A DNA stretch of 64,000 bases. Origin: an uncultured Bacilli bacterium. GTDB lineage: Bacteria; Bacillota_I; Bacilli_A; RF39; UBA660. How positions within the stretch are numbered: position 1 is the first letter of the stretch; every line of letters begins with the position of its first letter. Positions 4,940 to 57,321 of the stretch are shown here, piece after piece. The translations under genes were made by a program, and so were the position numbers. The notes beneath the pieces are model-generated. The model was not told the DNA's origin. It did not search any database and was given only the letters and a program-made list of their open reading frames with translations. The DNA lies in assembly GCA_934090935.1 (NCBI GenBank), contig CAKOKD010000003.1:92604-156603 (forward strand). The letters run 5' to 3'.

Positions 4940-6193
4940 TTAAGATATTTTAAACGCTGGAGAAATACCATAGATCGCGATAGTGTTTGTATATGAAAGC
5001 TTACCTGATTCACTAACGTTACAGAATCCTTGAGCATCCTTTGCAGCAGCAGTTCTAAGCCAATAACTAGTGTTTGTTCCTTGATAAGTCTTTATGGCTG
5101 GAGAGTACTCTGTTAAAGTAACTGAAGCATTCTTATAATAGTCAAGTTGTCTTGTTGAAGCACCTGATGAATCATAGAATGTTGAATTTTCTCCCCAAAT
5201 CTCTTTTGGTGAAAACAAATATATTTTGTCGCTTGATTGAAAATCCATTTCTCCCCTTGTTGGACCATGTCCCGATATTATTTTGGTTGTAGTTATAACA
5301 TTTTGTAACTCACTTGGAAGAGCAGAATAAATAGTGTCATTAAGATAAAGTTTTAAATATGTTGAATTCCAACCTCCTACGTTAGTAGCTGTGCTATTTA
5401 CATATATTTTATCTATAATATCTACAATTTCAAATACAAAACCACAGGCCGTTTCACTTCTTTCAGTAGTACATGCACTTGTATTCATAATGCGAACTTG
5501 AACAGTTTGAGATGGAATAACGGCAGATTTACATGTATAAGAAGTAGTATTCTTTATAATTGTTCCACAGTTATTTGTATAAGAACTTAATGTTATAGTT
5601 TTAGTATCTCCTACTTTATATTCACTTGTATTACCATTTTCGATGTCGTTTTTAATAGTTTCCCAGCTATTCTTTTCAAAAGCACTGGCACCTGTTTCAA
5701 TCTCAGTTCGTTCTGTTGCATTAAATTCTAATGTACAGGTATATTCTTCACTTACCTCTTCTGTTGATGTTTTATTAAGAGTTGTTGTAAGAGTTCCATT
5801 TACTGACTTTTTAGCTTTTACAACATCGGCATTTCCTTCAAGTTCATTCTTGATACTTGTATATTTTGCTGTTGCTCCGTCCTTTGGTACACATGTTACT
5901 TTAACCTCTGCATCATAAATGCTTGAGTTATTAGTTATCGTATATTCTAGAATTGAAGTTTGATTTAATGTCTTTAATTCTGATGTTTCAAAAGTTATAA
6001 CCTTTTTAGTATCATCAATTACATCATCATATACATCTTTACCATCAAGACTAGCAGCAGTAAATGCTACTGAAAAATCATCCTCATTTTCAGATATTCT
6101 TGTATTCGAATTTATTATAAGCGTTGTTGATACGGCAGCAAATCCAATACTCATAATCAATATTACTAAAGCTAACATATTCTTATTTTTCAT
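4940..6193 (-). CDS. variable secreted protein paralog, conserved N-module + C-terminal SPAFRI-type domain; tandem copy without poly-G promoter
   Basis: MKNKNMLALVILIMSIGFAAVSTTLIINSN... N-module is about 75% identical to the other copies. C-terminus has ...WLRTAAA...GISPAFKIS. RBS GAGAGG. Confidence 0.75.
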   Translation of the reverse strand: MKNKNMLALVILIMSIGFAAVSTTLIINSNTRISENEDDFSVAFTAASLDGKDVYDDVIDDTKKVITFETSELKTLNQTSILEYTITNNSSIYDAEVKVTCVPKDGATAKYTSIKNELEGNADVVKAKKSVNGTLTTTLNKTSTEEVSEEYTCTLEFNATERTEIETGASAFEKNSWETIKNDIENGNTSEYKVGDTKTITLSSYTNNCGTIIKNTTSYTCKSAVIPSQTVQVRIMNTSACTTERSETACGFVFEIVDIIDKIYVNSTATNVGGWNSTYLKLYLNDTIYSALPSELQNVITTTKIISGHGPTRGEMDFQSSDKIYLFSPKEIWGENSTFYDSSGASTRQLDYYKNASVTLTEYSPAIKTYQGTNTSYWLRTAAAKDAQGFCNVSESGKLSYTNTIAIYGISPAFKIS

Positions 6194-6288: not shown

Positions 6289-7476
6289 TTATGCGATTCG
6301 GAATGCTGGAGAGACTCCATTGAAATAGTTTGCATCGTTACTGTACCATCTGCCATCACTGTCGACGCCAAGGAAACCAATGTCATAATCAGAATAAGCC
6401 GAACGAAGCCACCATGTTGTATTTATTCCGTTATGTTGTTTTATTGCTCCTGCGTAACTGCTTGTTGTTACTCCTTGATTTTTATAATAATCTAATTGTT
6501 TTGATGTTCCTATTGATGTATCATGATCATTACCATTCCAAACTTCTTGTGCACTCAATAAGTATAATTTATCTTGGGTTTCAAAATTCGTTTCTCCACT
6601 TGTACTTCCATGACTTGATATTACTTTTGTTATTGTAATCACGTTTTGTAATTCAATTGGAAGTGCATTATATATTGTTCCATTTACATATGTACGTAGT
6701 TCTGAATCTTTCCATCCACCTACATTTGTTGCTGTACTATTTATTTTGTGATCTGCTATATAGCTTGCAAATTCTACTACAAATCCACATGCTGTTTCAC
6801 TTGTTTCTGTTGTACATGAACTCATGTTTGCAATACGCACTGTATGTGTTCCTAAATCCCCCAAGTCTACTTCTTTAGTATCTCCCACATTGTATTTATC
6901 TGTATTTCCTGATTTTACAGCTTTTTGTATTGTTTGCCAACTATCAGTTGAAAATGAGATAGGATCCGGAATGTTTACTCCAACAGTATCTCTTTCTACT
7001 GCATTAAATGTAAGTGTACATACATATTCTTCTCTTACTTCTTCTGTTGCTGTTTTATTAAGTGTTACTGTTAATGTTCCATTAACACTTTCCTTTGCCA
7101 ATACTTTCGTTACATTTCCTTCTAGTTCATTTTTTATACTTGTGTATTTTGCTGTAGTTCCATCTTTTACTTTACAATTTACTTGCACTTCAGCATCATA
7201 GTTTGCTGAATTATTTGTTACTTCATAATTTAACACACTTGTTTGATTTAGTGTTTTTAATTCTGATGTTTCAAATGTTATTATCTTCTTTGTTTCATCT
7301 ACTACAGAACTATATACATCCTTTCCATCTATACTTGCAGCTGTAAAGATAACTGAGAAGTCATCTTGATTTTCACTTACGTTTGCATTTCCATTTATTA
7401 TTAATGTTGTTGAGATCGCTGCAAATCCAATTGACATTAAAATAATTGCTACTATAAGCATACTCTTCTTTTTCAT
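6289..7476 (-). CDS. variable secreted protein paralog (N-module + SPAFRI-type C-domain)
   Basis: MKKKSMLIVAIILMSIGFAAISTTLIINGNA... Conserved blocks NVGDTKEVDLG, CTTETSETACGFVVEF, TNVGGW, LQNVITxTKVIS, QLDYYKN, WWLRSAYS, GVSPAFRIA. Confidence 0.8.
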   Translation of the reverse strand: MKKKSMLIVAIILMSIGFAAISTTLIINGNANVSENQDDFSVIFTAASIDGKDVYSSVVDETKKIITFETSELKTLNQTSVLNYEVTNNSANYDAEVQVNCKVKDGTTAKYTSIKNELEGNVTKVLAKESVNGTLTVTLNKTATEEVREEYVCTLTFNAVERDTVGVNIPDPISFSTDSWQTIQKAVKSGNTDKYNVGDTKEVDLGDLGTHTVRIANMSSCTTETSETACGFVVEFASYIADHKINSTATNVGGWKDSELRTYVNGTIYNALPIELQNVITITKVISSHGSTSGETNFETQDKLYLLSAQEVWNGNDHDTSIGTSKQLDYYKNQGVTTSSYAGAIKQHNGINTTWWLRSAYSDYDIGFLGVDSDGRWYSNDANYFNGVSPAFRIA

Positions 7477-7503: not shown

Positions 7504-7530
7504 ATTTTATAATACCCCCCCGATTTTCAA
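7504..7530 (-). promoter_or_regulatory. phase-variable-type promoter: -35 TTGAAA (7525..7530), G7 tract (7515..7521), -10 TAAAAT (7504..7509); spacer 15
   Basis: The coding strand reads cTTGAAAatcGGGGGGGtattaTAAAATaaaaa. The same element recurs with G8 or G9 at five other loci. Confidence 0.6.
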
Positions 7531-7681
7531 GTCATTTTGGAGGGTTTACACTACTTCTTGTAAATATCCTACTGTATAACTTTATTATACTACATATTTG
7601 TTGTATTTTACTTATTTTATTTTTTTATGTGTAAAGTCAAAAAAAGCACTTAAGTTTTAATCCTTAAATGCTTATTTATTT

Positions 7682-7741: not shown

Positions 7742-8863
7742 TTATCTAAATAACAACATGTAGATTAAAAATCCTATTAAAATAGTTGTTATGATAATTC
7801 CATTAATTGTATCTGTTTTATCAGTTCTTCCTTCAACACCAACTATCATACCAGAGAATAATCCTCCAACAAGTCCACCAATATGACCAAAGTTATCAAT
7901 CATTGGATTCATAAAGCCGATTACTAGGTTTAAGATTATTACAGGAACTATACCAGTCATCATTACATTTCCTAAATATAATCTATAATGATATCCAAAG
8001 TATAATAAAGATCCCATAAGACCAAATATTGCTCCGCTTGCTCCAATTGATGAATAATTACCTAATACTCCACTTAAAAGTGAAGAAACAATTGCACTCA
8101 TTAAATATACAAATATAAATTTTTTCTTCCCTAAAACGTTTTCTAATTCTTTACCAATTATAGCAAGTGAATACATATTGCAAAGCAAATGTATTATATC
8201 TGCATGGAAAAATGCGGCTGTTATTAATCTATAGAATTCATGATTTTGTATTCCTGTTTTATTCATTGAAAAAGCGTTTACATCCAATATTCCTGAAACG
8301 GATAACATAAATATAAGTACATTTATAAATATCAAAACATAAGTGATGATAATTGGCTTTTTCTTAAATGTTTTTTCAAATAATTTGTTTTTTTCTTCTG
8401 TTTTAACATTGATATCATTCGTAACGTTTATGAAGAAATCCATATTATCGCTTGAAGATATTTCATCATTTTTTATATCTGGGAATATCTCAAGAAGTCG
8501 GTTGTTTTCGATTCCTTCATCAACATCTATTTTACATAGATCCATGTTTTTTCGATGCTCATCAAACTTAACATTTTCACCAATATTTAAGAATATATTT
8601 AAAGTTTTACATTTAAATGATAAAGTTTTCTTTTTTATTTGTTTGACTACTGAATTTGTTTTATAGATATCAAAATCCAATTGTTCATTATTATGAATAT
8701 AATTGCTATTGATTCTTACAACTTCGTAGTCTGAATCTAAGTTTTCTAACCATATTTCATTTTCAACACCATTTACAAGTATTGGTTGATAGTTTTCTTT
8801 TGTAATAAAGTAATGCACTAAACGCATCACTAATTGATCAGTATTTGACATGTTCATAACCAT
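7742..8863 (-). CDS. rhomboid-family intramembrane serine protease with N-terminal cytoplasmic extension
   Basis: C-terminal half has GASGAIFGLMGS (catalytic Ser in GxSG) and ...H... in the last TM helix. Multiple TM helices. Confidence 0.75.
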   Translation of the reverse strand: MVMNMSNTDQLVMRLVHYFITKENYQPILVNGVENEIWLENLDSDYEVVRINSNYIHNNEQLDFDIYKTNSVVKQIKKKTLSFKCKTLNIFLNIGENVKFDEHRKNMDLCKIDVDEGIENNRLLEIFPDIKNDEISSSDNMDFFINVTNDINVKTEEKNKLFEKTFKKKPIIITYVLIFINVLIFMLSVSGILDVNAFSMNKTGIQNHEFYRLITAAFFHADIIHLLCNMYSLAIIGKELENVLGKKKFIFVYLMSAIVSSLLSGVLGNYSSIGASGAIFGLMGSLLYFGYHYRLYLGNVMMTGIVPVIILNLVIGFMNPMIDNFGHIGGLVGGLFSGMIVGVEGRTDKTDTINGIIITTILIGFLIYMLLFR

Positions 8864-14109: not shown

Positions 14110-16269
14110 TTAATCAAATATGCTTTTACACTTAGTTACTTCGCCATCTAAATGCCATCCGTCATTAGTGTTATATTTTAATACATACCATTCAAATTGA
14201 CAGTCTTTCTTTAAAAAGTTTTTCTTTTCATACTTTTTAATAGCTTGTTCTTCTATTGATTTTAGCTCTATCTTTGATTCAGCAGTCATATAATTATATA
14301 TTTCATCTTGATTTAATGATAAAACGGCTTCATGTTTTTTATTTTTCTTAGCCTCTGCTATTATATTGCTGATTCTGTTTGACGATAAAACAAATTTAAT
14401 TTTTTTATTCTTTCCTAATTCTTCATACCAAATAGGATTTCTACCTGCTCCATTGCTTGGTCTGTTAAGTACTTTTAATCTATATAGTCTTGTTGTTGCA
14501 ATTCCAAGTTTTTCATATACAGCTTCAATATTTGTATTCTCTTTTATATTTTTTAAAGATTTATTCCATTTTTTAAACTCTAAATAATAAGGATTTTCTC
14601 CATCAACATATACTAAAGAATCATATTTAGGTTCTTCTACAGCTTCATCATATTTAACTTTCTTTTGAGTTTCTACTAAAGCATTATTTTGATAATATTT
14701 AAATGTAACAATAAACTCTTTTTTGCTTGTAGTTGCATAATATGATGTATCCTTAGAAGGCATTGTTTCATCAACCTTCCAAGAACTAAATGTATATCCT
14801 TCTTTTACTTTATAATCAGGTAGTTTTATTTTCTCTCCATATTTATAATTTTCTTCTTTATATAAATCATTATCTATAAAGAATTTTGCTTTATAAGTTT
14901 CTAAATCATAAGTGATAGTTAGTACTAAACTTCCATCTGCTTTAATAATACCAGTTAGAATAGATTTTTCTTTGTTGATTTTATAACCAGACTTTTTATC
15001 ATTTAAAGTTATTTTTTCATTTGTTTTGCCAGTTTTAACTTTCTCATTTTCTTTATAAGTACCATCTAGATTTTCTAATCTTTCAATTATTTTATACTTA
15101 GTGTTTTCACTTTCTTTGAAAAGTGCTTTTAAAGATAAATCGCCTGTTGTTCCTCGTTTTATCTCATCCACTTTTTTTCCGGATTCATCCTCCCATGAAA
15201 CAAATACATATCCTTGTTTTTCTATTTTGTTTAATTTAAATGTCTTTGTTTCTATAGTATATGAAGTTTTATTATCAGTTTTACTTCCACCATTTAAATC
15301 ATATTCAATCTTATAAGTAATTAGATTATATTCAGCTTTGATAACTAAATCACTTTTAATATTTTTTTCACTTTTATTCCATGATTTAAAAGTATAACCT
15401 GTTCTTTCTTTTACTTCAGGAATTGTTGCATCATTTCCATATTTAACAGTTTGTTCACTTATAATAGTATCATTATAATCAACAAATTTAACTTTAAAAG
15501 TCATATTATTTATCTTTTCGATAATCTCTTCTATTTTCTTAGTTTCTTTATCGATTTCTTCTTGAGTTGACTTTTCATTATCAATAATTTTTTCAGCTGA
15601 TTTTATCTCTTTTTCTAAATCAGCAAGTATTTTTTTTGCCTTTGAATCATCAGTTGAATAAAGATATTCTTTTGATCTTTTAATAGCGTTTTTTAATTCT
15701 GTATCATCAACGACTGTAATAGTTCTTGTAACTGTTAATGCTGCGTTTTTACTTGAATCTGTTACATCATAAGTTACTTTATAAACTCCTTTTTTAGAAG
15801 TATCAACCATATTTTTAGTAACAATCTTTTTTGTTAAATCACCATCATAGTTGTCACGTGCTTTAGCTTTTAAATCATTGTAAACTGTATTAATTCTAAT
15901 TATTTCATCACTTCCATTTAAAGTGATAACTGGTGCAGTTGTATCAACAACAAGGAATTCTTTTTTTATTTCATTTGATAATCCAGCTTCATCAGTAGCA
16001 ATAAATGTTACTTCATATTTTCCTACCTTTTTATTGTTGATATTGTTTTCGATTTTTAAAGTAACATTATCTGCAACTTTTCCGTTAAATTTTGGAATGT
16101 TATCAAATACTTCTATTTTAAATTTATTACCTGTTATATCTATATCAGGTTTTGTAGAAGTTGATATTAAAGTTTCACTTCCATTTTCTTCACTTGGATT
16201 AGCAAATGAGAATGCAAAGAATCCAAAGAAAACAAATATTATAAGTGCAAGTAATTTCTTCTTATCCAT
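14110..16269 (-). CDS. secreted surface protein with Ig-like (DUF5011-type) domain and Listeria-Bacteroides (flg_new) repeats
   Basis: Signal peptide present. DTTAPVITLNGSDEI...YDGDLT is Ig-like. Repeated modules have the pattern YxVxFxxNGG...GYTFxxW (e.g. VKFVDYNDTIISEQTVKYGNDATIPE...GYTFKSWN). Confidence 0.7.
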   Translation of the reverse strand: MDKKKLLALIIFVFFGFFAFSFANPSEENGSETLISTSTKPDIDITGNKFKIEVFDNIPKFNGKVADNVTLKIENNINNKKVGKYEVTFIATDEAGLSNEIKKEFLVVDTTAPVITLNGSDEIIRINTVYNDLKAKARDNYDGDLTKKIVTKNMVDTSKKGVYKVTYDVTDSSKNAALTVTRTITVVDDTELKNAIKRSKEYLYSTDDSKAKKILADLEKEIKSAEKIIDNEKSTQEEIDKETKKIEEIIEKINNMTFKVKFVDYNDTIISEQTVKYGNDATIPEVKERTGYTFKSWNKSEKNIKSDLVIKAEYNLITYKIEYDLNGGSKTDNKTSYTIETKTFKLNKIEKQGYVFVSWEDESGKKVDEIKRGTTGDLSLKALFKESENTKYKIIERLENLDGTYKENEKVKTGKTNEKITLNDKKSGYKINKEKSILTGIIKADGSLVLTITYDLETYKAKFFIDNDLYKEENYKYGEKIKLPDYKVKEGYTFSSWKVDETMPSKDTSYYATTSKKEFIVTFKYYQNNALVETQKKVKYDEAVEEPKYDSLVYVDGENPYYLEFKKWNKSLKNIKENTNIEAVYEKLGIATTRLYRLKVLNRPSNGAGRNPIWYEELGKNKKIKFVLSSNRISNIIAEAKKNKKHEAVLSLNQDEIYNYMTAESKIELKSIEEQAIKKYEKKNFLKKDCQFEWYVLKYNTNDGWHLDGEVTKCKSIFD

Positions 16270-16570
16270 ATTTTACCTCCTGTTTTTCCATTCCTATAAA
16301 AAATGGTGAAAATTGACTTTTAATTTTAATTGAATCACGATGATATGTATATACTTTGTATCCAAGTCCAACACATTCGTCAACTGTTCCATCATCAAAT
16401 TTATGTTCAATACGCTTTACACAGAATATTGGTTTTTCTGAATTTCTTGTCTTTACAAAATCTGTTATCCAAGTTGCAAATAAAACAACTATTATTACCC
16501 AGAACAATACATTTCCAATTATTTTTAATAATCCACCTCTTTTTTTCTTCACGCTTTTTTCTTCTTCCAT
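16262..16570 (-). CDS. small membrane protein, translationally coupled to the surface protein gene
   Basis: RBS GUAAGGAGG. TM segment NVLFWVIIVVLFATWI. 102 aa. Confidence 0.45.
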   Translation of the reverse strand: MEEEKSVKKKRGGLLKIIGNVLFWVIIVVLFATWITDFVKTRNSEKPIFCVKRIEHKFDDGTVDECVGLGYKVYTYHRDSIKIKSQFSPFFIGMEKQEVKYG

Positions 16571-16602: not shown

Positions 16603-16722
16603 ACTCGCGTATAAATGCAACTGACTACCTTTATTTCATATGAAATAATAAGGCTCTTGAGCTTTGCGTCACTACATTTCTATAGTTTTGCCCTAATCTA
16701 CTTTAATAAAATATAACATAAT

Positions 16723-17791: not shown

Positions 17792-18970
17792 TTATACTAT
17801 TCTAAATGCTGGGGAAACACCTTTAGAGACGTTCGCATCGAAAGCGGAGTTGACGCCGCTGCTACTGACGCAAAGAAACCAGTAATTAACGCCAGAATAA
17901 GCCGAACGTAACCACCAATAGTCATTTCTTCCTTTATATTGTTTTATTGCTCCTGCATATTTATCAGCTGTTATTCCTTGATTTTTGTAATAATCTAATT
18001 GTCTTGACGTTCCTACTGATGTATCATGATCATCACCATTCCATACCTCTTGTGCATTTAATAAATATAATTTATCTTGTGTTTCAAAATTTGTTTCTCC
18101 AGAATTTTTTCCATGGCTTGATATTATTTTTGTTGAAGTTATTACACTTTGTAAGTCACTTGGAAGTGCATTATATATTGTTCCATTTATATATGTACGT
18201 AACTCTGAATTTTTCCATCCACCAACATTTGTTCTTGTACTGTTAAATGCTCGCATTGTTATTATATCTGCAAACTCAACTACAAATCCACATGCTGTTT
18301 CACTTGTTTCAGTTGTACATGCACTCATGTTTGCTATACGCACTGTATGTGTCCCTAGATTACCTAATTCTACTTCTTTAGTGTCTCCTACATTATATTT
18401 GCTTGTATTTCCATTCTTTACGTTTGATGCTATTGCTGACCAACTATCCTTTTGGAATTGAGTTAATTCTACACCAACTGTGTCCCTTTCTACTGCATTG
18501 AATTCTAACTTACATGTATATTCTTCACTTACTTCTTCTGTTGATGTTCTATCAAGTGTTACTGTTAATGTTCCGTTTAATGAAGTCTTTGCTTTTACAA
18601 CTGTGGCATTATTTTCAAGTTCATTCTTGATACTTGTATATTTTGCTTTTGTTCCGTCCTTTGGTACACATGTTACTTTAACCTCTGCATCATAGTTTGC
18701 TGAGTTATTTGTTACTTCGTAATTTAATATACTTGTTTGATTTAATGATTTTAATTCTGATGTTCCAAATGTTATTATCTTCTTTGTATCATCTACTACA
18801 GAACTATATACATCCTTTCCATCTATACTTGCAGCTGTGAAGATAACTGAGAAGTCATCTTGATCTTCGCTTACTTTAGCATTTCCGTTTATTATTAATG
18901 TTGTTGAGATCGCTGCAAATCCAATTGACATTAGTAATATTGCTACTATAAGCACACTCTTCTTTTTCAT
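17792..18970 (-). CDS. variable secreted protein paralog (N-module + SPAFRI-type C-domain)
   Basis: MKKKSVLIVAILLMSIGFAAISTTLIINGNAKV... C-terminus ends ...WWLRSAYS...GVSPAFRIV. Confidence 0.8.
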   Translation of the reverse strand: MKKKSVLIVAILLMSIGFAAISTTLIINGNAKVSEDQDDFSVIFTAASIDGKDVYSSVVDDTKKIITFGTSELKSLNQTSILNYEVTNNSANYDAEVKVTCVPKDGTKAKYTSIKNELENNATVVKAKTSLNGTLTVTLDRTSTEEVSEEYTCKLEFNAVERDTVGVELTQFQKDSWSAIASNVKNGNTSKYNVGDTKEVELGNLGTHTVRIANMSACTTETSETACGFVVEFADIITMRAFNSTRTNVGGWKNSELRTYINGTIYNALPSDLQSVITSTKIISSHGKNSGETNFETQDKLYLLNAQEVWNGDDHDTSVGTSRQLDYYKNQGITADKYAGAIKQYKGRNDYWWLRSAYSGVNYWFLCVSSSGVNSAFDANVSKGVSPAFRIV

Positions 18971-18997: not shown

Positions 18998-19025
18998 ATT
19001 TTATAATACCCCCCCCGATTGTCAA
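18998..19025 (-). promoter_or_regulatory. phase-variable-type promoter: -35 TTGACA (19020..19025), G8 tract (19009..19016), -10 TAAAAT (18998..19003); spacer 16
   Basis: The coding strand reads TTGACAatcGGGGGGGGtattaTAAAAT, then the leader with AAGGAAAG RBS and ATG at 18970. Confidence 0.6.
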
Positions 19026-19069
19026 ATTTTTCTGTTGAAAAGTTGTAAAGTTCGTGTTATATTTTATTT

Positions 19070-19151
19070 AGTGAGAAGCAAAGTTTCTTTAGGACGCGAT
19101 GCTTACCACCATTGGTGTTTGCACCTTTTTCAAAAGAAAAGGTGCTTTTTT
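19070..19151 (+). ncRNA. candidate antisense small RNA (type I antitoxin-like), promoter TTGAAA-17-TATATT at 19035..19063, intrinsic terminator 19121..19151
   Basis: Promoter, repeat motif A (GTGAGAAGCAAAGTTTCTTTAGGACGCGATGCTTACCAC), then GCACCTTTT-tcaaaag-AAAAGGTGC plus TTTTTT. No ORF. Convergent with the peptide ORF. Confidence 0.4.
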
Positions 19152-19156
19152 ATAGT

Positions 19157-19252
19157 TTATATTCCTTTTTTACAAAGTAGATATAATAATATAAAAATTA
19201 TAACGAATAAACTTACAATTAAAACATCTGTTTTAAATGATTTCTTAAACAT
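19157..19252 (-). CDS. 31-aa hydrophobic peptide (type I toxin-like): MFKKSFKTDVLIVSLFVIIFILLYLLCKKGI
   Basis: AAGGGAG RBS 9 nt before ATG. Single TM helix with charged ends. 5' UTR contains the reverse complement of motif B (19304..19339). Its 3' end overlaps the sRNA terminator. Confidence 0.4.
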   Translation of the reverse strand: MFKKSFKTDVLIVSLFVIIFILLYLLCKKGI

Positions 19253-24785: not shown

Positions 24786-26153
24786 TTATTTTATTAATGT
24801 TATACGTGCATATCCATTTCCTTGTTTAGAACAGTTTTCGGTTGGTGTTTCGCTTGTGCATGTAGTTGATATGGTTTTTGTTGACTCTTCACTAGATTCA
24901 GTACAGTTGTAACAATACATCGATTTTTCGGATAAAAGTGAATTTCCTATGTATCCTGAACCTCCGCCAGCGGTATATCCAGCAACAGTTCCACCATAGA
25001 AACCTCCACCGCCTCCAGCCCAGGCCAAAGTGCCTCCACCGCCTTGACCAAATGTTCCAAAATTAGGATTATTTTTATTTGAAGACTCATTCACTGAATT
25101 ATATATTCTTTTGCCTCCATTTGTTTGGGTTCCTCCAAATCCTTGATAGGGTTTGCCTGAAGATGCTGCTATATAAGATCCCGAGTTTCCTCCAATATAA
25201 CCACCACCGGATCCAGAAACTATTTTATAATTATGGTCGTTATTACCACCACCGGCTCCTCCTCCAGAAACAATTAATACATCATCAATGTTATTATTAA
25301 AAGCATATAGTAAACCAGATTCTAATGCTATGTGTGTCGCACCACCTCCACTTGCATTATATGAATTAGTAGCCGAATTAAATGATGCAGATCCTCCTCC
25401 ATTATAGCCGCCTTCTTTGTTTACCCAAGTTAATTCTCCAAGGCCTTGTCCTCCAATATTAATATAAAACTTATTATTCTTTTCTAAATAAATTATTCCT
25501 TGAGAATACCCTCCATATCCACCAGAAATATTTACAGTTTTTCCACCTTCTGCTCCCCAAGTTTCAAGCTTATATGTTCCATTTACTGGAACTTCAAATG
25601 TTTGTTCATCTCCAGTATAATCAAATGTCCATTCTGTTGGTCCATCGTAACTAACACCTAATTCTGTTCTTTCTACGGCATTAAATTCTAATGAACATGT
25701 ATATTCTTCAGTTGTTTCTTCTATTGATTGTTTATCTAAGGTAACAGTTAATGTTCCATTTAATGTTTCGTTTGCTTTTACAACTGTTGCATTTCCTTCT
25801 AATTCATTTTTGATACTTGTATATTTTGCTGTTGTTCCGTCCTTTGGTACACATATAACACGCACTTCTGCATCATAGTTTGCTGAATTGTTTGTTACTT
25901 CATATGTTAGTACTGATGTATCATTTAGTTTTTTTAGGTCTTTACTTTTAAATGTTATTGTCTTCTTTGTATCATCTGTTACTTCATCATATACATCTAT
26001 TCCATCTAATGTTGCTGCTGTAAATATTACTGAATAATCATCTGTATTTTCATTTACTTTTGCATTTCCATTTATTATCAATGTTGTACTTACTGCTGCA
26101 AATCCAATTGACATCAATATTATTGCTACTACTAACATGCTCTTCTTTTTCAT
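24786..26153 (-). CDS. variable secreted protein paralog: conserved N-module + ALK/LTK-like glycine-rich (poly-Gly) domain + Cys-containing C-terminal tail
   Basis: N-module MKKKSMLVVAIILMSIGFAAVSTT... Then PTEWTFDYTGDEQTFEVPVNGTYKLETWGAEGG...GGYGGYSQG...GGGATHIALESGLL...LIVSGGGAGGG... Tail YCYNCTESSEESTKTISTTCTSETPTENCSKQGNGYARITLIK. Confidence 0.8.
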   Translation of the reverse strand: MKKKSMLVVAIILMSIGFAAVSTTLIINGNAKVNENTDDYSVIFTAATLDGIDVYDEVTDDTKKTITFKSKDLKKLNDTSVLTYEVTNNSANYDAEVRVICVPKDGTTAKYTSIKNELEGNATVVKANETLNGTLTVTLDKQSIEETTEEYTCSLEFNAVERTELGVSYDGPTEWTFDYTGDEQTFEVPVNGTYKLETWGAEGGKTVNISGGYGGYSQGIIYLEKNNKFYINIGGQGLGELTWVNKEGGYNGGGSASFNSATNSYNASGGGATHIALESGLLYAFNNNIDDVLIVSGGGAGGGNNDHNYKIVSGSGGGYIGGNSGSYIAASSGKPYQGFGGTQTNGGKRIYNSVNESSNKNNPNFGTFGQGGGGTLAWAGGGGGFYGGTVAGYTAGGGSGYIGNSLLSEKSMYCYNCTESSEESTKTISTTCTSETPTENCSKQGNGYARITLIK

Positions 26154-26180: not shown

Positions 26181-26208
26181 ATTTTATAATACCCCCCCCG
26201 ATTTTCAA
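26181..26208 (-). promoter_or_regulatory. phase-variable-type promoter: -35 TTGAAA (26203..26208), G8 (26192..26199), -10 TAAAAT (26181..26186); spacer 16
   Basis: Same element as the other copies. Followed upstream by an about 130-bp block shared with 31835..31960. Confidence 0.6.
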
Positions 26209-26340
26209 GGGCATTATCTTGTTTTACATTACTTTTGTCGTCTTTTTTATTTTGTTCTCCTATTGTTTCTTATATTATACAACATTTTTATTGTGCTTTG
26301 TATATTCATTTTTATTATGTGTAAAATATTTGTTTTAAAT

Positions 26341-27861: not shown

Positions 27862-29508
27862 CTAAAATAATTCTTTTAATTCGTGTTTTATATCCTTTAT
27901 AGTGTTAACTATATCTGGATTATATTTGTTTTCTTCAACCATAAGAATATTCTTCATCGCGATGTTGAAAGATTTGCTTAAAGTATATTGCAATATTTTT
28001 ACAGAAATATTTGTTATTTGAGCTTCTATTGGAATATTTTCTCCTGTTAAAGCATTTGGGTATCCAGCTCCATTATACATCTCAAAACTATAATTAATGA
28101 TATTGCTTGCAACTTTAAAATGTAAATTATCCTTTATATAGTTTTGAATTAAAATATGTCCATAGTCTATTTCTTCTTTAATGGAATCACTTGTTATAAC
28201 CGAATCCTTTGATATCGCGATTGATCCAACATTATATAATGCACATGATTTAACTATATTATCTATATATTTTGAATCTAAATTATATTTTGGATATTTA
28301 TTAGCAAGACTTACACTTACTAGTCTAACTATTTTCTTTAAAAGCATGGATTCTTTTGATGTCTCAATATTTGTAATAATTTTATTTATGATTAACTCCA
28401 ATGATTTATTATCATTTACAGTTTTTAATTCCTCATTTTGAACTTCAACTATATTTTGTAAACTATTACTAGATTGATATAGGTTAATAATTTTTCCAAA
28501 TCTTCTTCTAATATTTTCTGTATTAAATGGTTTTTCAAGCATATCTACTATGTCATATTGATATACTCTCTTTCTCGTCTCTCTTGTTTCATCCCCACTT
28601 ATTATGGCAACAGGAATTCTATTGAATAAGTCATTAGATTTCATAAATTCAAGAACGTCGAAGCCATCAGATTCAGGCATCACTAAATCAAGAAGCATAC
28701 CTACAATATTTTCATGATTTCCACTTACTGATGATGTTAAAACATTATCAGTAATAATGTTTATCGCTTCTAAACCATTTTTAGCAACTAATATCTCAAA
28801 ATCATTAGAGAATATTCTTTTTAACGAGTTTCTAATTATTGAAGAATCATCTACGATTAAAATTGATGGCTTTTTATAACTGCTCATCTCCGCCATTCTA
28901 TTTAAGATGGCTTTATTTAACTCAGGATGTTCTTCTGTTACTTTGTTGAATATCGAATTTATATAGTTTCTTGTTTGTTCACTTCCATTAGATGTGTCAA
29001 GAGCATGATTTATAAGATAGATTGCATCACTTATGCTCTTGTTTTCCTTATCCAATCTCTTCTTATAATCAGTAACTTCAGTTTCAAGTTTATCATTTTC
29101 ACTTTCAATATCAGTTAAACGATTGCTTATATCTTCACTCATCATAAATATAAGTTTTTTGCCTTCAAATGGCAAATAATTGATTATATTTACAAACCAT
29201 TTATACTCTCCAGTTTCACATAGTTTACGATATTTTATTTTTGTTTCATTGTTTCCCTTTTGACTTTCTTCTTCTAATTTATTAATTGATAAAGCATCAA
29301 AATAGTTTGATAAATCAGCAGAATTTACAAAACGTTTAGCTACATCTATGAAAGATGTATATGATGTAGTTTCTTTAATGATTAGATTATTGCTTATTGT
29401 AAAATCAAATTTGTATACTTTATCAGCTATTACATCGATTACATATATATTAGAGTAATTAGCATTTATAATTCTTGATACTTGTTCAATTAAACCTGAT
29501 TCGTTCAT
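27862..29508 (-). CDS. response-regulator receiver protein with N-terminal coiled-coil region and C-terminal degenerate HD-GYP-like domain
   Basis: REC domain (SILIVDDSSIIRNSLKRIF...LLDLVMPESDGFDVLEFM...). C-terminal ...YNGAGYPNALTGENIPIEAQI matches the GYP signature, but the upstream HHE metal motif is not evident. Confidence 0.5.
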   Translation of the reverse strand: MNESGLIEQVSRIINANYSNIYVIDVIADKVYKFDFTISNNLIIKETTSYTSFIDVAKRFVNSADLSNYFDALSINKLEEESQKGNNETKIKYRKLCETGEYKWFVNIINYLPFEGKKLIFMMSEDISNRLTDIESENDKLETEVTDYKKRLDKENKSISDAIYLINHALDTSNGSEQTRNYINSIFNKVTEEHPELNKAILNRMAEMSSYKKPSILIVDDSSIIRNSLKRIFSNDFEILVAKNGLEAINIITDNVLTSSVSGNHENIVGMLLDLVMPESDGFDVLEFMKSNDLFNRIPVAIISGDETRETRKRVYQYDIVDMLEKPFNTENIRRRFGKIINLYQSSNSLQNIVEVQNEELKTVNDNKSLELIINKIITNIETSKESMLLKKIVRLVSVSLANKYPKYNLDSKYIDNIVKSCALYNVGSIAISKDSVITSDSIKEEIDYGHILIQNYIKDNLHFKVASNIINYSFEMYNGAGYPNALTGENIPIEAQITNISVKILQYTLSKSFNIAMKNILMVEENKYNPDIVNTIKDIKHELKELF

Positions 29509-29600: not shown

Positions 29601-31772
29601 TTATTTTATTAAAGTTATACGTGCGTATCCATTTCCTTGTTTTGAACAATTTGCTGTTGGCGTTGCACTTGTGCATGTAGTTGAAATTGTTTTTGTGGAC
29701 TCTTCAGTAGATGTAGCACAGTTATAACAATACATCACTTTTTCGGATAATTTTGAATTACCGATGTATCCTGAACCACCGGCTGCTGAAGAACCATTAT
29801 AATAAGCTCCGCCTCCACCATAAAGTCCACTTCCGCCTCCAGATGCGCTTTGAGTTTTCTCGTAATTTCCTCCATAACCGAATCCTCCATTAGAAATCGT
29901 TAAAGCTGTACTTCCATTAGTTCCATATTTGCTTTGTGAACCTCCAGTTGCTAAACTATCTTTCTCTGTTATTCCATTAGATCCTAAATAACCTCCACCA
30001 GATCCTCCTGAATGTGGATTGTATGGAGATTGGGGAGTTGTTAGATACTTTTTATAGTGCCAACCGGCTCCTCCGCCTCCACCAGAAACAATAAGAACAT
30101 TTTCAATATTATTGCTATAATTTTTTAACTGACCATCATCTATCAATAAGTTCTGAATGGAAGTTGCTCCGCCTCCAGCTCCCCAGACTGTTCCTCCATC
30201 TGATTTTGCGTTTCCTCCTCCATTATAGCCACCATCATATATTTTAACTGTAGAATAATCATCTCCATCAGTTCCTTTTCCTCCAACTATAATATATAAA
30301 ATATCATTTTTATTTAAAGTAACTACTCCTTTTGAATATCCACCATATCCACCAAGAGCCTCGCTTGTTTGAGCATAACCACCTTGTGCTCCCCATGTCT
30401 CTAACTTATATGTTCCAGATACTGAGGCAGTAAATGTTTGCTCGCCTCCTGTATAATCAAATGTCCATTCAGTTGGACTTTTATATGCTTTTTCTGTTCT
30501 AGATATTTTATTAACCTTTAACTTACAAGTAAAATTCTCCATATTGATATTCTCTAGTGTTATAGTCTTCCTATCTTGAGCTTCAATAGTTATTGGATCT
30601 GTTGATATTTTACTATCTTTATCATTTAAAACTAAAGTAATACGTGCATATCCGTTTCCTTGTTTTGAACAGTTTTCGGTTGGTGTTTCATTTGTACATG
30701 TTGTTGATATGGTTTTTGTTGACTCCTCACTAGATTCAGTACAGTTATAGCAATACATCACTTTTTCGGATAATTTTGAATTTCCAATGTAACTTGAACC
30801 ACCTCCAGCTCCTTGTAAAGTACCTGATGTACCGCCATATAAACCGCCTCCGCCACTAATTGTACCAGTATTTATATTTGTTCTTCCTGTACCAAATGAA
30901 CCATTATACTTGCCGCTTGTGTCAAGTGAATTATAGCTTTCTGTTTGAGTTCCACCTACTCCACAAACATAGCCTTTTTTACCATTATATGCATCATGAC
31001 AATCATAAGCGGAAACACCGATATAACCACCAGCATGTCCACCTTTTCCGTTCCAACCACCATGGTTAGAACAACCGCCTCCGCCTCCAGAGACAATAAT
31101 TAAATTTTCAAGACTATTTTTAAACGTAGTTAATAATCCAGAAGATGTTGCTATATGTGTTGCACCTCCGCCTGATGACACTCTTCCAGAGGTATCCGCG
31201 CTTCTTTTGGAATGACCTCCTCCATTATATCCTCCATTGACTAAATTTTTATCACTTGTTCCATTGTTAGCTTTGCCTGAACCGCCAACATTTATATATA
31301 AAACGTCATCCTTATTAAGTGTTGTTGTACCAGACGAATATCCACCGTAACCTCCAAAGTATGTTGAATCGATTACTCCACCTTGTGCTCCCCATGTCTC
31401 TAACTTATATGTAGCAGACATTGGTGCTGTAAATGTTTGTTCAGCACCTGTATAATCAAATGTCCATTCAGTTTTATCTGGTACTATATTATTTTCACAT
31501 TCAATATAACTTTCTGTGTCATATTCTGTTGAATCATTTACTATATCTATACTTATATTTCCATCTATATTGCTTAAAGTAAATTCATCTTTTGTTGCAT
31601 TTATTCCTGTATTTTCTGTATCATTTACTTTTAAATTATCTAAATATACCTTAAAATCACTTATGTTTTCTGATATTTTACCTAATCCATATATATTTAC
31701 TGTTGCATTATATGCTGCATACCCTATTATCATAAATAAAACAGTAACTAGCATTATTGTCGTCTTTTTCAT
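29601..31772 (-). CDS. large secreted protein with two ALK/LTK-like glycine-rich domains, each followed by the Cys-containing tail
   Basis: Signal MKKTTIMLVTVLFMIIGYAAYNATVNIYG. Two copies of TEWTFDYTGxEQTFTAxxSxTYKLETWGAQGG...GGYGGYS...GGGAT...SGGGGG...YCYNCxxSxEESTKTISTTCT..PT.NCSKQGNGYARITL. Confidence 0.75.
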   Translation of the reverse strand: MKKTTIMLVTVLFMIIGYAAYNATVNIYGLGKISENISDFKVYLDNLKVNDTENTGINATKDEFTLSNIDGNISIDIVNDSTEYDTESYIECENNIVPDKTEWTFDYTGAEQTFTAPMSATYKLETWGAQGGVIDSTYFGGYGGYSSGTTTLNKDDVLYINVGGSGKANNGTSDKNLVNGGYNGGGHSKRSADTSGRVSSGGGATHIATSSGLLTTFKNSLENLIIVSGGGGGCSNHGGWNGKGGHAGGYIGVSAYDCHDAYNGKKGYVCGVGGTQTESYNSLDTSGKYNGSFGTGRTNINTGTISGGGGLYGGTSGTLQGAGGGSSYIGNSKLSEKVMYCYNCTESSEESTKTISTTCTNETPTENCSKQGNGYARITLVLNDKDSKISTDPITIEAQDRKTITLENINMENFTCKLKVNKISRTEKAYKSPTEWTFDYTGGEQTFTASVSGTYKLETWGAQGGYAQTSEALGGYGGYSKGVVTLNKNDILYIIVGGKGTDGDDYSTVKIYDGGYNGGGNAKSDGGTVWGAGGGATSIQNLLIDDGQLKNYSNNIENVLIVSGGGGGAGWHYKKYLTTPQSPYNPHSGGSGGGYLGSNGITEKDSLATGGSQSKYGTNGSTALTISNGGFGYGGNYEKTQSASGGGSGLYGGGGAYYNGSSAAGGSGYIGNSKLSEKVMYCYNCATSTEESTKTISTTCTSATPTANCSKQGNGYARITLIK

Positions 31773-31799: not shown

Positions 31800-31827
31800 A
31801 TTTTATAATACCCCCCCCGATTTTCAA
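31800..31827 (-). promoter_or_regulatory. phase-variable-type promoter: -35 TTGAAA (31822..31827), G8 (31811..31818), -10 TAAAAT (31800..31805); spacer 16
   Basis: Identical architecture to the 26181..26208 copy. Confidence 0.6.
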
Positions 31828-31998
31828 GGGCATTGTCTTGTTTTACATAACTTTTGTCGTCTGTTTTATTTTGCAGTTGTATTATATCTTATATTATACA
31901 ACATTTTCGTTGTATTTTGCATATTCATTTTTATTATGCGTAAAGTGTATTTATTTATTATCATTGTAATTTATATTGAAAAATGTTATATTTATTTT

Positions 31999-32089
31999 AG
32001 TGAGAAGCAGAAGTTTTCTTTTGAGGCTGATGCTTACCACGTGTTATGTGTACGCATCCTTATTCAGTAGAATAAAGATGCTTTTTTTT
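31999..32089 (+). ncRNA. candidate antisense small RNA copy 2 (promoter TTGTAA-17-TATATT at 31964..31992; terminator 32054..32089)
   Basis: Motif A (GTGAGAAGCAGAAGTTTTCTTTTGAGGCTGATGCTTACCAC), then GCATCCTTATTC-agta-GAATAAAGATGC plus T8. Convergent with the 27-aa peptide ORF, whose stop lies in the U-tract. Confidence 0.4.
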
Positions 32090-32171
32090 ATTGCCATAAT
32101 AATTTTAAAATTATTACTAGCAATATAAAAACGATTAGATAAAGTAATCTTATATGATTATCTTTTTTCAT
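32088..32171 (-). CDS. 27-aa hydrophobic peptide (type I toxin-like): MKKDNHIRLLYLIVFILLVIILKLLWQ
   Basis: AGAGGAAG RBS 7 nt before ATG. Near-consensus promoter TTGACA(32289..32294)-16-TATAAT(32267..32272) fires directly into the reverse complement of motif B (32229..32261). Confidence 0.45.
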   Translation of the reverse strand: MKKDNHIRLLYLIVFILLVIILKLLWQ

Positions 32172-32344
32172 CGTATCACTTCCTCTCGTACTCCTTAACC
32201 AAAACCCTGAATATTTAGCCTCTAGTTTGGAAGTGATAAGCACCTTTTTCTGCTTCTCGAGTTTGTATTATATATGCTAAATTTTTCTTGTCAATAAATC
32301 CGACAAATGTCGACAAAATTAGAACCTAAAAAAAATAAAATATA

Positions 32345-32369
32345 TAAAAAAAATCGCATTCTTGCGATT
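32345..32369 (-). terminator. rho-independent terminator of 32368..34497 (stop codon lies inside the hairpin)
   Basis: Minus-strand AATCGCAAGAATGCGATT plus TTTTTTTT. Confidence 0.5.
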
Positions 32370-34497
32370 ATTTTATTAAGGTAATACGTGCGTATCCGTT
32401 TCCTTGTTTTGAACAGTTTGCTGTTGGAGTTTCATTTGTACATGTAGTTGATATAGTTTTTGTTGCCTCTTCACTAGACTCGGTACATTTATAACAATAC
32501 ATTGATTTTTCACTTAATTGTGAATTTCCTATATATCCTGAGCCTCCACCAGCTCCAGCATAATGTGAAAAACCGCCTCCATAAAAGCCAGCACCTCCTC
32601 CGGCTCCAGAAGTTCCTGTATCATATCCACCAATTCCAAAGACTCCATAATTAGTTGTTCTTATACCATGATCTGTACTAGAGTTATATCCATTTCCATA
32701 AACTACAGTTCCACCACTTGTTTGACTTCCTCCAAAGCCTATCCAATAGTAATCACCACTGTTGGTTCCATCGTTACCTTTGTATCCACCACCGGCTCCT
32801 CCAGATCCACTATAAGATGAAGAGTCATTTGTTCGATATCCAAAAGCTGCTCCTCCGCCTCCGGAAACCATTAAGATGGAATCAAGATCGTTTTGTAGAT
32901 TTTCTAGTCTTTCACTTTTTAGTAAAATATAACTAGCATCTCCTCCATCACTACTTCCTTTATAAACTTCATTTCCTTGACCTCCACCAAAGACTTTGTT
33001 TTGTCCACCAACAGTTATATATAAATTATCTTTTTTGTTTAGATAAATTTCTCCAATAGAATATCCTCCATATCCTCCGATATAGGAAACTCCCGCCTTT
33101 GAAGTTGCATTACCTCCTTGTGCTCCCCATGTCTCTAACTTATATGTTCCACTTGTTGGTGCTGTAAATGTTTGCTCTAATCCAGTATAATCAAATGTCC
33201 ATTCAGTTGAGCCTGTATATATTTCTTCTTTTGTCGTTCTTGATATCTTGTTAACTTTTAATTTACAAGTGAAATTCTCCATATTAATATTCTCTAATGT
33301 TATTGACTTCTTATCTTGTGCTTCTATTGTTACCACTTCTGTTGAAGTAATTTCTTTTGAATTACTTGAAACTAGAGTAATACGAGCGTATCCATTGCCT
33401 TGCTTTGCACAATTTTCAGTTGCTGTTGATGAAGTACATGTAGTTGAAATGGTTTTTGTTGACTCTTCATCTGACTCAGCACAGTTATAGCAATACATTG
33501 ATTTTTCACTTAATTGTGAATTACCAATATATCCTGAGCCACCTCCAGCGCCTCCATGGAAACTACCTCCGCCTCCATAAAAGCCAGCACCTCCGCCACA
33601 AGCAACATAATTTGCCACAGTTGATCCAAATCCTTTACCAAATGTACCAATACATGCTCGATATCCGCTTGATGTTCCTTTTATCCAGACCATATCTCCT
33701 CCAGTTGTTTGACTACCACCTGTTCCATAACCATATCCATATCCGTTAGTATGGTTAACTGACTCTCCGTTGTTTCCTTTTATTCCTCCGGCAGATCCTC
33801 CGTTTCCATCTCCATAACCTGAGCCTCTGTTTGCTGCTCCGCCTCCACCTCCAGAAACAATCAATATGTTTTCTTTTTTAGTTTCAAAAGTGGATAATAA
33901 TCCCGATAAATCTGCTATATGTGTTGCTCCGCCGCCAGCTTTTCCGTAATTGCCATTATTAACGTACCCACCGCCATTATATCCTCCGGTAAGAGCAACT
34001 CCTTGACCACCTGCATTTATATATAGAATTTTTCCACCTTCTAAGGTCATTTTACCAGAAGAATATCCGCCATAGCCTTCAAAATAATTTGATGAATAAG
34101 ACCCACCTTGTGCTCCCCATGTTTCAAGCTTGTATGTTCCACTTATTGGTGCTGTAAATGTTTGCTCCGATCCTGTGTAATCAAATGTCCATTCAGTTTT
34201 CTCCGGTGTTACATTGCTTTCACACTCAAGATAACTTTCTGTGTCATATTCTGTTGAATCATTTACTATATCTATACTTATGTTTCCATTTATATTGCTT
34301 AAAGTAAATTCGTCTTTTGCATCATTTATTCCTGTACTTTCCGTATCATTTACTTTTAAATTATCTAAATATACTTTAAAGTCACTTATGTTTTCTTCTA
34401 GTTTACCCAATCCATATATATTCACTGTTGCATTATAAGCAGAAAAACCTATCACCATAAACAATATTGTTAAAAGCAAAATGATTCCTTTCTTCAT
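32368..34497 (-). CDS. large secreted protein with two ALK/LTK-like glycine-rich domains (tandem paralog of 29601..31772)
   Basis: MKKGIILLLTILFMVIGFSAYNATVNIYG... Same two-domain organisation and the same C-terminal tail. No poly-G promoter upstream. Confidence 0.75.
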   Translation of the reverse strand: MKKGIILLLTILFMVIGFSAYNATVNIYGLGKLEENISDFKVYLDNLKVNDTESTGINDAKDEFTLSNINGNISIDIVNDSTEYDTESYLECESNVTPEKTEWTFDYTGSEQTFTAPISGTYKLETWGAQGGSYSSNYFEGYGGYSSGKMTLEGGKILYINAGGQGVALTGGYNGGGYVNNGNYGKAGGGATHIADLSGLLSTFETKKENILIVSGGGGGAANRGSGYGDGNGGSAGGIKGNNGESVNHTNGYGYGYGTGGSQTTGGDMVWIKGTSSGYRACIGTFGKGFGSTVANYVACGGGAGFYGGGGSFHGGAGGGSGYIGNSQLSEKSMYCYNCAESDEESTKTISTTCTSSTATENCAKQGNGYARITLVSSNSKEITSTEVVTIEAQDKKSITLENINMENFTCKLKVNKISRTTKEEIYTGSTEWTFDYTGLEQTFTAPTSGTYKLETWGAQGGNATSKAGVSYIGGYGGYSIGEIYLNKKDNLYITVGGQNKVFGGGQGNEVYKGSSDGGDASYILLKSERLENLQNDLDSILMVSGGGGAAFGYRTNDSSSYSGSGGAGGGYKGNDGTNSGDYYWIGFGGSQTSGGTVVYGNGYNSSTDHGIRTTNYGVFGIGGYDTGTSGAGGGAGFYGGGFSHYAGAGGGSGYIGNSQLSEKSMYCYKCTESSEEATKTISTTCTNETPTANCSKQGNGYARITLIK

Positions 34498-38232: not shown

Positions 38233-38547
38233 TCACATATGTTTTCTTGATGAAACCATTTTATCAGGAATATAATCTTGAACAAATGAAAGTGCTTGAT
38301 CAGCTGAATTAACAACAGCAGATGAAGTATGTCCAAGCCTATCTTGATATTGAACAGTGACGTGATCAGTGGCACTTAAACCAGATTGCTTTGATATAAA
38401 ATCAAATGTTAAACTACAATCTTCTGAGTAAACGATAACTCTTTTACACCCTGGAGCTAAATCTTGTTCTCTACAACTGGATAATCCATTTGTAAGTCCT
38501 TCATATATTTCATTTAAATTTGTGTTAGTTTCAACACTCATATTCAT
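38233..38547 (-). CDS. small soluble hypothetical protein (104 aa), compositionally foreign (about 40% GC), driven by a poly-G promoter copy
   Basis: MNMSVETNTNLNEIYEGLTNGLSSCREQDLAPGCKRVIVYSEDC... No signal peptide. GAGAGG RBS. Confidence 0.45.
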   Translation of the reverse strand: MNMSVETNTNLNEIYEGLTNGLSSCREQDLAPGCKRVIVYSEDCSLTFDFISKQSGLSATDHVTVQYQDRLGHTSSAVVNSADQALSFVQDYIPDKMVSSRKHM

Positions 38548-38573: not shown

Positions 38574-38601
38574 ATTTTATAATACCCCCCCCGATTTTCA
38601 A
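38574..38601 (-). promoter_or_regulatory. phase-variable-type promoter copy: -35 TTGAAA (38596..38601), G8 (38585..38592), -10 TAAAAT (38574..38579)
   Basis: Same element. Here it is upstream of a non-paralog cargo gene. Confidence 0.55.
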
Positions 38602-41529: not shown

Positions 41530-42357
<828 letters not shown>

Positions 42358-57294: not shown

Positions 57295-57321
57295 AGTATA
57301 TCATCCCCCCCCGATTTTCAA
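57295..57321 (-). promoter_or_regulatory. phase-variable-type promoter: -35 TTGAAA (57316..57321), G9 tract (57304..57312), -10 TATACT (57295..57300) preceded by TG; spacer 15
   Basis: The coding strand reads TTGAAAatcGGGGGGGGGatgTATACTaaaa. Longest G tract, and a different -10 from the other copies. Confidence 0.55.

Follow-up and report, generated by a model that had tools for sequence, protein, structure and literature searches.

A poly-G tract in the spacer of a repeated promoter cassette as a candidate phase-variation switch of secreted proteins in uncultured gut Bacilli

Several bacteria vary their surface proteins by repeats within promoters. In Neisseria meningitidis, a poly-G (or poly-C) tract lies between the -35 and -10 boxes of the sigma-70 promoter of the surface protein gene porA (also of opc and fetA), where steps of 1 nucleotide (nt) alter both the spacing and the amount of transcript, and hifA/B of Haemophilus carry a TA repeat at this place (PMC3899988). 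In the multigene surface family vlp of Mycoplasma hyorhinis, a low-GC relative among the Bacilli or Mollicutes, as for maa2 of M. arthritidis and vmm of M. mycoides, the genes have their own conserved promoters, and insertions or deletions (indels) in the spacers switch them on or off (PMC2268961) independently of each other, leading to combinatorial expression (PMC2268961; PMC11868660). Here, a related arrangement is described in a 64-kb stretch of DNA from an uncultured Bacilli bacterium (contig CAKOKD010000003.1; the whole stretch is called the window, and all positions refer to it), in which six promoter elements with a run of seven or eight G residues in the spacer precede genes, in five cases members of a secreted-protein family. 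The reading we favour, and regard as evenly poised between right and wrong, is that a slippage-prone G run in the spacer of a SigA-type promoter would set the promoter strength, with G8 as the resting and G9 as the full-strength state.

Where porA is a single gene of a Gram-negative pathogen, the cassette described here is present in about 20 copies per genome in walled gut Bacilli of low guanine-plus-cytosine (GC) content, with a tight mode at G8; tracts of the porA type are longer and much more length-variable. The multigene architecture is closest to that of Vlp, with many paralogs which each have their own G-tract promoter. However, vlp genes have a long poly-A tract and encode lipoproteins with repetitive C-termini, whereas the present genes have a G8 tract and encode proteins with a Sec-type N-terminus and a DUF6273 or ALK_LTK_GRD domain. 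This N-terminus contains neither a cysteine nor a lipobox, no homology to the Vlp lipoproteins was found (the Pfam matches are DUF6273 and ALK_LTK_GRD) nor any sequence homology to vlp or the other systems named above, and unlike the vlp host, the host here has cell-wall genes (FtsW, MraY, sortase).

An earlier note on this DNA had listed six copies of the element on the minus strand, and all six are present (Table 1), reading TTGAMAATC-G(n)-(T)ATKATAWAMT. The pattern TTGAMAATCGGGGG has 6 matches in the window against 0.34 expected from shuffling, and for runs of at least G7, 11 overlapping matches are found against 0.49 expected. The six elements far exceed what chance would give, and their tracts are the sole G or C runs of 6 or more in the 64-kb window, which has a GC content of about 28%. 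In all six copies, G7 or G8 fills 7-8 nt of the 15-16-nt spacer. The tract lengths given before, G7, G8 and G9, are correct for the G7 at 7504 and for the G8 copies, but the supposed G9 at 57295 is a G8. This copy reads TTGAAAATC-G8-ATGATATACT, with the different -10 box that had been pointed out (TATACT) and a TGn extended -10. Because the T which follows the tract in the other copies is absent, its spacer is 15 bp; two relatives (L116 and L021) read G8-TATGA-TATACT, with a spacer of 16 bp. The spacers therefore do not cover 15, 16 and 17 bp as was thought, but measure 16 bp in four copies, 15 bp in two and 17 bp in none. With lengths of 7/8/8/8/8/8, the spread of 7, 8 and 9 within one genome, which had been taken as a sign of mutability, falls away. 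The perfect TTGACA of the 18998 copy is as described.

Table 1. Positions of the promoter cassettes, their genes and other features of the window
Feature	Position	Strand	Details	Spacer	Gene(s) behind the promoter	Upstream TGTAAA, TTTACA or equivalent
Promoter cassette	7504..7530	(-)	-35 TTGAAA 7525-7530; G7 7515-7521; -10 TAAAAT 7504-7509	15 bp	6289-7476, 4940-6193 (DUF6273)	7545..7564 (-), TTTACA-N8-TGTAAA
Promoter cassette	18998..19025	(-)	-35 TTGACA 19020-19025; G8 19009-19016; -10 TAAAAT 18998-19003	16 bp	17792-18970 (DUF6273)	19044-19049 (-)
Promoter cassette	26181..26208	(-)	G8 26192-26199	16 bp	24786-26153 (ALK_LTK_GRD)	26223-26228 (-)
Promoter cassette	31800..31827	(-)	G8 31811-31818	16 bp	29601-31772 (ALK_LTK_GRD)	31842-31847 (-)
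Promoter cassette	38574..38601	(-)	G8 38585-38592	16 bp	five-gene operon, see next row	38616-38621 (-)
Operon of promoter 38574		(-)	in order: 38233-38547 (104 amino acids (aa), non-secreted), 37246-37965, 36642-37217 (AAA_18), 34597-36579, 32368-34497 (ALK_LTK_GRD)
Promoter cassette, variant	57295..57321	(-)	TTGAAAATC-G8-ATGA-TATACT; tract 57305-57312	15 bp	56058-57263 (DUF6273)	57346-57351 and 57358-57363 (-)
Representative family gene	17792..18970	(-)	392 aa; signal or anchor N-terminus, predicted beta-rich middle, C-terminal DUF6273
Cyclic di-GMP (c-di-GMP)-I riboswitch	16613-16702	(-)	Rfam RF01051, 59.6 bits
Open reading frame (ORF) behind riboswitch	16262-16570		102 aa
Surface protein behind riboswitch	14110-16269		719 aa; immunoglobulin-like (Ig-like)/Flg_new
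Response-regulator-HD protein	27862-29508
Peptide module, first	19157-19252	(-)	with 19063-19150 (+)
Peptide module, second	32088-32171	(-)	with ~31990-32090 (+)
Perfect TTGACA-16-TATAAT	32267-32294
Serine recombinase	41848-42324	(-)	158 aa; resolvase domain only
Transfer RNA	42935-43006	(-)
HD protein	43050-43598	(-)	weak Rep-like Pfam match
Large ORF	46224-52811	(-)	2195 aa; weak Big_2, dockerin and WxL-interacting-domain matches
Cadherin-like-domain protein	44375-45784

Since the hexamers, their spacing and their distance to the start codons fit, the sequence supports each element as a sigma-70/SigA-type promoter with TTGAMA and either TAAAAT or TATACT, and with the G tract in the spacer. 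The end of the -10 box lies 23-32 nt upstream of the start codon, and the tract is between the two boxes, as the earlier note had placed it. In a simple promoter scan, the elements rank among the top matches. Matches to a looser pattern from other taxa, which share TTGAMAATCGGG, have TGnTAAAAT or TGnTATAAT with a spacer of 16-18 bp, and because such unrelated promoters carry these boxes at this distance, TAAAAT/TATACT is read as the -10 box. When 115 copies were compared position by position, an invariant 28-nt core was found, along with an extended Shine-Dalgarno sequence that comes after an A-rich start region.

Other assignments were considered and rejected. Compared by eye with consensus motifs, the element does not fit SigB (GGGTAT -10), extracytoplasmic-function-type (TGAAAC...CGTA), SigH, SigF/G or sigma-54 promoters, the CodY box or the CcpA cre site in sequence plus spacing. 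A role at the RNA level was discarded since transcription is predicted to start downstream of the tract, and since the classes of flanking sequence do not share a pairing with C-rich stretches upstream; Rfam gave no match at the elements. As for an inverton or shufflon, just weak AT-rich inverted repeats are present, none of them bracketing a promoter, and the resolvase is 3 kb from one promoter copy only.

Upstream of the -35 box, the family promoters have a conserved TGTAAA(C) at a distance of 15-21 nt and mostly at a fixed position. Among 101 family promoters, TGTAAA was found 93 times (11 expected) and its complement TTTACA 28 times (7 expected), and some copies have the palindrome TTTACA-N8-TGTAAA. 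The consensus of the cassette is TGTAAA, N13-14, TTGAMA, ATC-G(n)-TATTA and then TAAAAT or TATACT. TGTAAA/TTTACA is a candidate regulator-binding site. In fim2/fim3 of Bordetella pertussis, a poly-C tract is located between the activator-binding region and the -10 box, and slippage comes on top of regulator control. In the present promoters, a conserved motif, the candidate site, lies upstream of the -35 box. Unlike in fim, the -35 box is a good match to the consensus and would have no obvious need of an activator.

As the earlier note had it, five of the six promoters drive members of one family, which share the N-terminus MKKKSxLIVAILLMSIGFAAISTTLIINGNAKVSEN..DFSVIFT. Based on Pfam, there are two types of C-terminal domain, DUF6273 in three of these proteins and ALK_LTK_GRD (glycine-rich domain) in two; the sixth promoter heads an operon which ends in an ALK_LTK_GRD protein. 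Non-homologous genes also have the same core in front of them: one codes for a 104-aa cytosolic protein, another for a 236-aa protein, and others for membrane proteins of about 200 aa. For the 395-aa protein, AlphaFold2 gave a poor model, with a mean predicted local distance difference test (pLDDT) score of 56. Sequence searches of the Protein Data Bank returned no matches, NCBIfam gave no family name, and exact-protein look-ups of 56058-57263, 17792-18970 and 7742-8863 found none of them on record. DUF6273 is a very large family (more than 5260 matches at E<=1e-5), and is also targeted by diversity-generating retroelements in phage receptor-binding proteins. The context of the window is chromosomal, with PolA, WhiA, Fpg, signal peptidase I, FtsW, MraY and sortase.

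The distribution of the element was followed in two large DNA scans, of species-representative genomes and of metagenomes, which both required exact flanks and a minimum G count. Among the species-representative genomes, it was found in a few 'uncultured Bacilli' assemblies (Hadza gut), in Firmicutes bacterium CAG:582 and in a 'Tenericutes' gut assembly, while the metagenome matches listed come mainly from human-gut contigs. Two genome assemblies contain at least 19 and at least 18 copies, respectively. A survey with the N-terminal motif yielded 104 non-redundant family gene starts, 89 with a pure G tract of 6 or more, 7 operonic, 5 with other promoters and 3 with interrupted tracts. The element serves a large family of secreted proteins as its promoter cassette in a lineage of uncultured gut Bacilli, in front of about 20 genes per genome, and multiple paralogous genes each have their own repeat-bearing promoter. 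Several contigs (L059-L063, L013, L016, L053 and L199) often start or end at or beside the core, e.g. exactly at TTGAAAATC, likely because a core of about 30 nt is repeated in the genome. Contig L062 begins right after the tract, where tract heterogeneity may play a part.

Next, the tracts of orthologous loci were compared, a check which the earlier note had proposed. Orthologs were assigned by synteny or by identical proteins, and the window is included in the counts; an automated flank-anchored homopolymer comparison caught paralogs for the G tracts because of their shared flanks, and the synteny-based comparison was used instead. Contigs anchored on FtsW end short of the promoter. At locus 38574, the window and six other samples all have G8. 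Locus 31800 has G8 seven times (including L185-L190) and G9 once (L191), and locus 26181 likewise has seven G8 (including L185-L189 and L191) and one G9 (L190). The four observations at locus 18998 (window, L185, L186 and L192) are G8, and at locus 7504, the window has G7 and L064 has G8. In total, the 29 observations at five loci comprise 26 G8, 2 G9 and 1 G7, with three of the five loci polymorphic by one G on near-identical DNA.

The sequences surrounding these differences are very similar. Between L064 and the window, which encode an identical 395-aa protein, the tract is the only indel over 1758 aligned nt; L200 and L201, with a protein 98% identical to that of the 7504 gene, have G8. L188 and L190 share 99.26% identity over 12.1 kb with 2 indels, one of which is the 26181 tract, and in L191, which has the G9 at 31800, the compared flanks on both sides are identical to the window. 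As a control, runs of A or T were polymorphic in 0/60 cases at length 6, 1/25 at length 7 and 1/6 at length 8. G tracts (3/5) thus differ from A/T runs of 7-8 nt (2/31) with a Fisher p of 0.013. On account of the one-G differences between orthologs set against these A/T controls, the G tract is, as judged from assembled sequence, measurably indel-prone.

A second line of evidence is the spacing. In about 0.93 Mb of DNA from the same lineage, near-consensus promoters upstream of ORFs were collected, non-redundant and with the G-tract promoters excluded. A spacer of 17 bp was found in 35 promoters (10 expected from shuffles), while 16 bp (8 promoters, 10 expected) and 18 bp (8 promoters, 12 expected) were not enriched. 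Ordinary promoters of the lineage therefore use a 17-bp spacer almost exclusively, and by this rule, G8 with 16 bp is one base short and G9 restores the canonical spacing.

Family promoters with a tract interrupted by a non-G base were also collected. Tracts of 9 nt with a 17-bp spacer are found in L073 (GGGGGTGGG), at a second site in L171 (AGGGGTGGG) and in L202-L204 (GGTGTAGGG), and tracts of 10 nt with an 18-bp spacer in L046 and L147 (both GGGGAGGGGG). L087 has GGGGGA, 6 nt long, with a 14-bp spacer. A length of 8 nt is seen in 0/6 interrupted tracts against 77/89 pure tracts (Fisher p=2e-5), in a small sample (n=6) in which the L147 assembly shows signs of homopolymer error. A plain substitution in G8 would leave 8 nt, and so the interrupted lengths of 9-10 nt count against G8 as a recognised motif. 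We infer that they fit G9/G10 as an expressed, 'locked on' state, in which case G8 would be the resting, weaker one. As a separate observation, an identical 396-aa protein (P0039) stands behind two contexts, the degenerate 9-nt tract of L202-L204 and, in L206, a pure G8 with an unrelated upstream sequence, which suggests an exchange of promoters or 5' regions between loci or strains.

Together, the one-G strain differences, the 17-bp rule, the interrupted lengths and the pure G run in DNA of 28% GC favour a slipped-strand switch, and suggest that gain or loss of one G would alter the expression strength of each gene. In the proposed mechanism, the cassette sits just upstream of a short leader with a strong Shine-Dalgarno sequence, and replication slippage by plus or minus one G in a run that makes up half of the spacer would shift the hexamer spacing by 1 bp. 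G8 (16 bp) would be the resting, weak or near-off state, G9 (17 bp) the full-strength state, and G7 and G6 would be off. The roughly 20 copies per genome would switch independently, resulting in cell-to-cell variation in secreted DUF6273 or glycine-rich-domain proteins, and a factor binding the TGTAAA motif could possibly add control above the switching. Frequent reversible slippage in populations, length-dependent expression and the polarity G9 > G8 are what we infer from these comparisons. A near-universal G8 in consensus assemblies would be expected if a minority of cells hold any one gene at G9.

A more far-reaching version is a Vlp-like lottery of few genes out of many, in which about 20 secreted or lectin-like paralogs are parked one G-slip too low and are mostly silent, a slip of +1 fires single genes, interrupted tracts of 9-10 nt are locked on and the TGTAAA factor gates the whole set. 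This version we put forward tentatively, as possible but short of probable.

The census of tract lengths has to be set against the favoured switch. It pools paralogs and orthologs, and assemblies give majority alleles only. In species-representative genomes, the pattern has 56 matches, about 50 from this lineage and the rest from other taxa; as assembled, these are 46 G8, 1 G7, 4 G6 (2 in this lineage), 2 G9, 1 G11 (a relative with a different flank) and 2 G5 (outside the lineage). Without the VOFC01 assembly, the metagenome contigs, with 56 family copies as assembled among the matches listed, have 47 G8, 3 G7, 1 G6, 2 G9 and 3 interrupted tracts. In one genome assembly, all 18 of 18 copies are G8. 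More than 95% of copies in these genomes of 28% GC retain a pure tract, and among the length variants, expansions are no more common than contractions (G7, G6). In VOFC01, all five copies (L088, L090, L100, L107 and L141) are G6 or G7, several with A-run length errors in the coding sequence; given these coding A-run indels, the lengths were treated as long-read homopolymer error rather than as real alleles and were excluded. Taken at face value, an artefact of this type would mimic phase variation. Two close paralogs of a distant relative (L006 and L024, CALVLG bin31) have longer tracts, TTGACAATC-G9-TATATGATAAAAT and TTGACAATC-G11-CATATGATAAAAT, which are 2 nt apart; their spacings fit neither choice of hexamers cleanly, and the contigs have about 5x coverage.

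In Campylobacter jejuni, with a similar GC content of about 30%, poly-G tracts number in the dozens and have a modal length, but are more dispersed in length. The tracts of C. jejuni act largely by frameshift within reading frames (PMC4965091), whereas those described here are all in a promoter spacer and have a narrower spread. In this species of 30% GC, a G8 tract was shown to switch at a high rate, with insertions as the main event; the modal length has been attributed to mutational bias (PMC3401435).

Several points thus weigh against a switch. Of more than 100 copies, drawn from several species and many samples, about 85-90% are exactly G8, a mode far tighter than that of classic contingency loci, as would be expected of a fixed element under direct selection. 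Artefacts account for some of the length variants, as in VOFC01, and the remaining ones come from consensus assemblies, some of low coverage. The conserved spacer flanks (ATC, TATTA), together with the same core in front of non-homologous genes, suggest sequence-specific recognition. A related genome with the same promoter family encodes a full-length MutS (domains I, III, IV and V; L210, 15590-18118), so mismatch repair is probably present and slippage rates may be modest; this could also explain the low length dispersion compared with C. jejuni. Moreover, the promoter-side T-tract of Mycoplasma agalactiae vpma does not switch (PMC2268961).

One rival reading is a fixed regulon promoter, in which G8 and its flanks form a sequence-specific cis-element, bound by a repressor or activator on the spacer or read by a dedicated sigma factor or co-factor together with TGTAAA, and in which the variants stem from assembly errors or from infrequent, mildly deleterious mutations, with no programmed switching. 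The dominance of G8, the conservation of the whole 28-nt core while the sequences on either side diverge, the non-homologous genes behind the same core, the second motif at a fixed distance and the homopolymer errors demonstrated in one assembly are all in its favour. It predicts interrupted tracts of 8 nt, however, where tracts of 9-10 nt at canonical spacing were observed, and it leaves the 16-bp spacing as an outlier to the 17-bp rule of the lineage. One-G differences also occur on near-identical backgrounds in Illumina assemblies, and no candidate G-run-binding regulator was identified. On balance, we regard a fixed regulon as unlikely, though deserving serious weight.

The same switch might also run with the opposite polarity, as the earlier note implied, with G8 (16 bp) as the normal 'on' state, rare slips to G7 or G6 turning single genes off and G9 only modulating the level. 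Selection for the 'on' length would be the simplest explanation of the G8 dominance, the contractions, which at least equal the expansions in frequency, point the same way, and loss or gain of a single G in the PorA spacer tract changes transcription significantly (PMC3899988). Yet ordinary promoters of the lineage are not enriched at 16 bp, and the interrupted copies, which would be stabilised, are at 17-18 bp and not at 16, so that G8 is probably not the 'on' state and this polarity is improbable. Finally, recombination or gene conversion among paralogs, which would keep the core uniform as a promoter or 5' shuffling cassette with the G run as a passenger, could draw on the two promoter contexts of P0039, the contig breaks at the element and the modular N-terminus joined to different C-terminal domains, but is very improbable, since conversion would homogenise the flanks too, which fall into several divergent classes around the invariant core, a passenger G8 would decay by substitution in DNA of 28% GC, and the promoters are flanked neither by inverted repeats nor by recombinase sites.

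Some other features of the window were noted (Table 1). The c-di-GMP-I riboswitch is upstream of the 102-aa ORF and of the Ig-like/Flg_new surface protein, and the response-regulator-HD protein may be a c-di-GMP phosphodiesterase. Just 5' of two G8 promoters are two similar modules, each with an ORF for a hydrophobic peptide of 27-31 aa (MFKKSFKTDVLIVSLFVIIFILLYLLCKKGI; MKKDNHIRLLYLIVFILLVIILKLLWQ), which has a promoter of its own and a conserved leader (ACTCGAGAAGCA...GCTTATCACTT), as well as a convergent small-RNA-like transcript with a shared bidirectional terminator. The perfect TTGACA-16-TATAAT at 32267-32294 belongs to this arrangement. From their sequence, the two modules look like a type I toxin-antitoxin pair; Rfam gave no match for them. 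The serine recombinase adjoins the transfer RNA and the HD protein, and the GC skew flips sign locally at 40-42 kb. This may be what is left of an integrated element, or else an invertase, and is not linked to the G8 promoters. The large ORF of 2195 aa, followed by the cadherin-like-domain protein, is a large surface-protein locus without a G-tract promoter.

PorA, Vlp and Fim are well-known cases of this class of mechanism. Judged by the literature searches, which found nothing relevant on this lineage and phase variation, the host lineage, the gene family, the copy number and the pattern of lying one slip below the canonical spacing are new. To our knowledge, what is understood of promoter-repeat phase variation comes almost wholly from pathogens (Neisseria, Haemophilus, Bordetella, Campylobacter and mycoplasmas), the switches known in gut commensals are mostly invertible promoters, and we know of no precedent for a promoter-repeat variable surface repertoire this large in a commensal Firmicute. 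The pattern would also offer a signature for such switches that can be read from assemblies only, with slippery copies one base off the canonical spacing and interrupted copies on it. If the favoured switch is true, an uncultured gut Firmicute, found in Hadza and other human gut samples, would have a large homopolymer-switched repertoire, for which immunoglobulin A (IgA), phage and niche binding are plausible pressures on the variable proteins.

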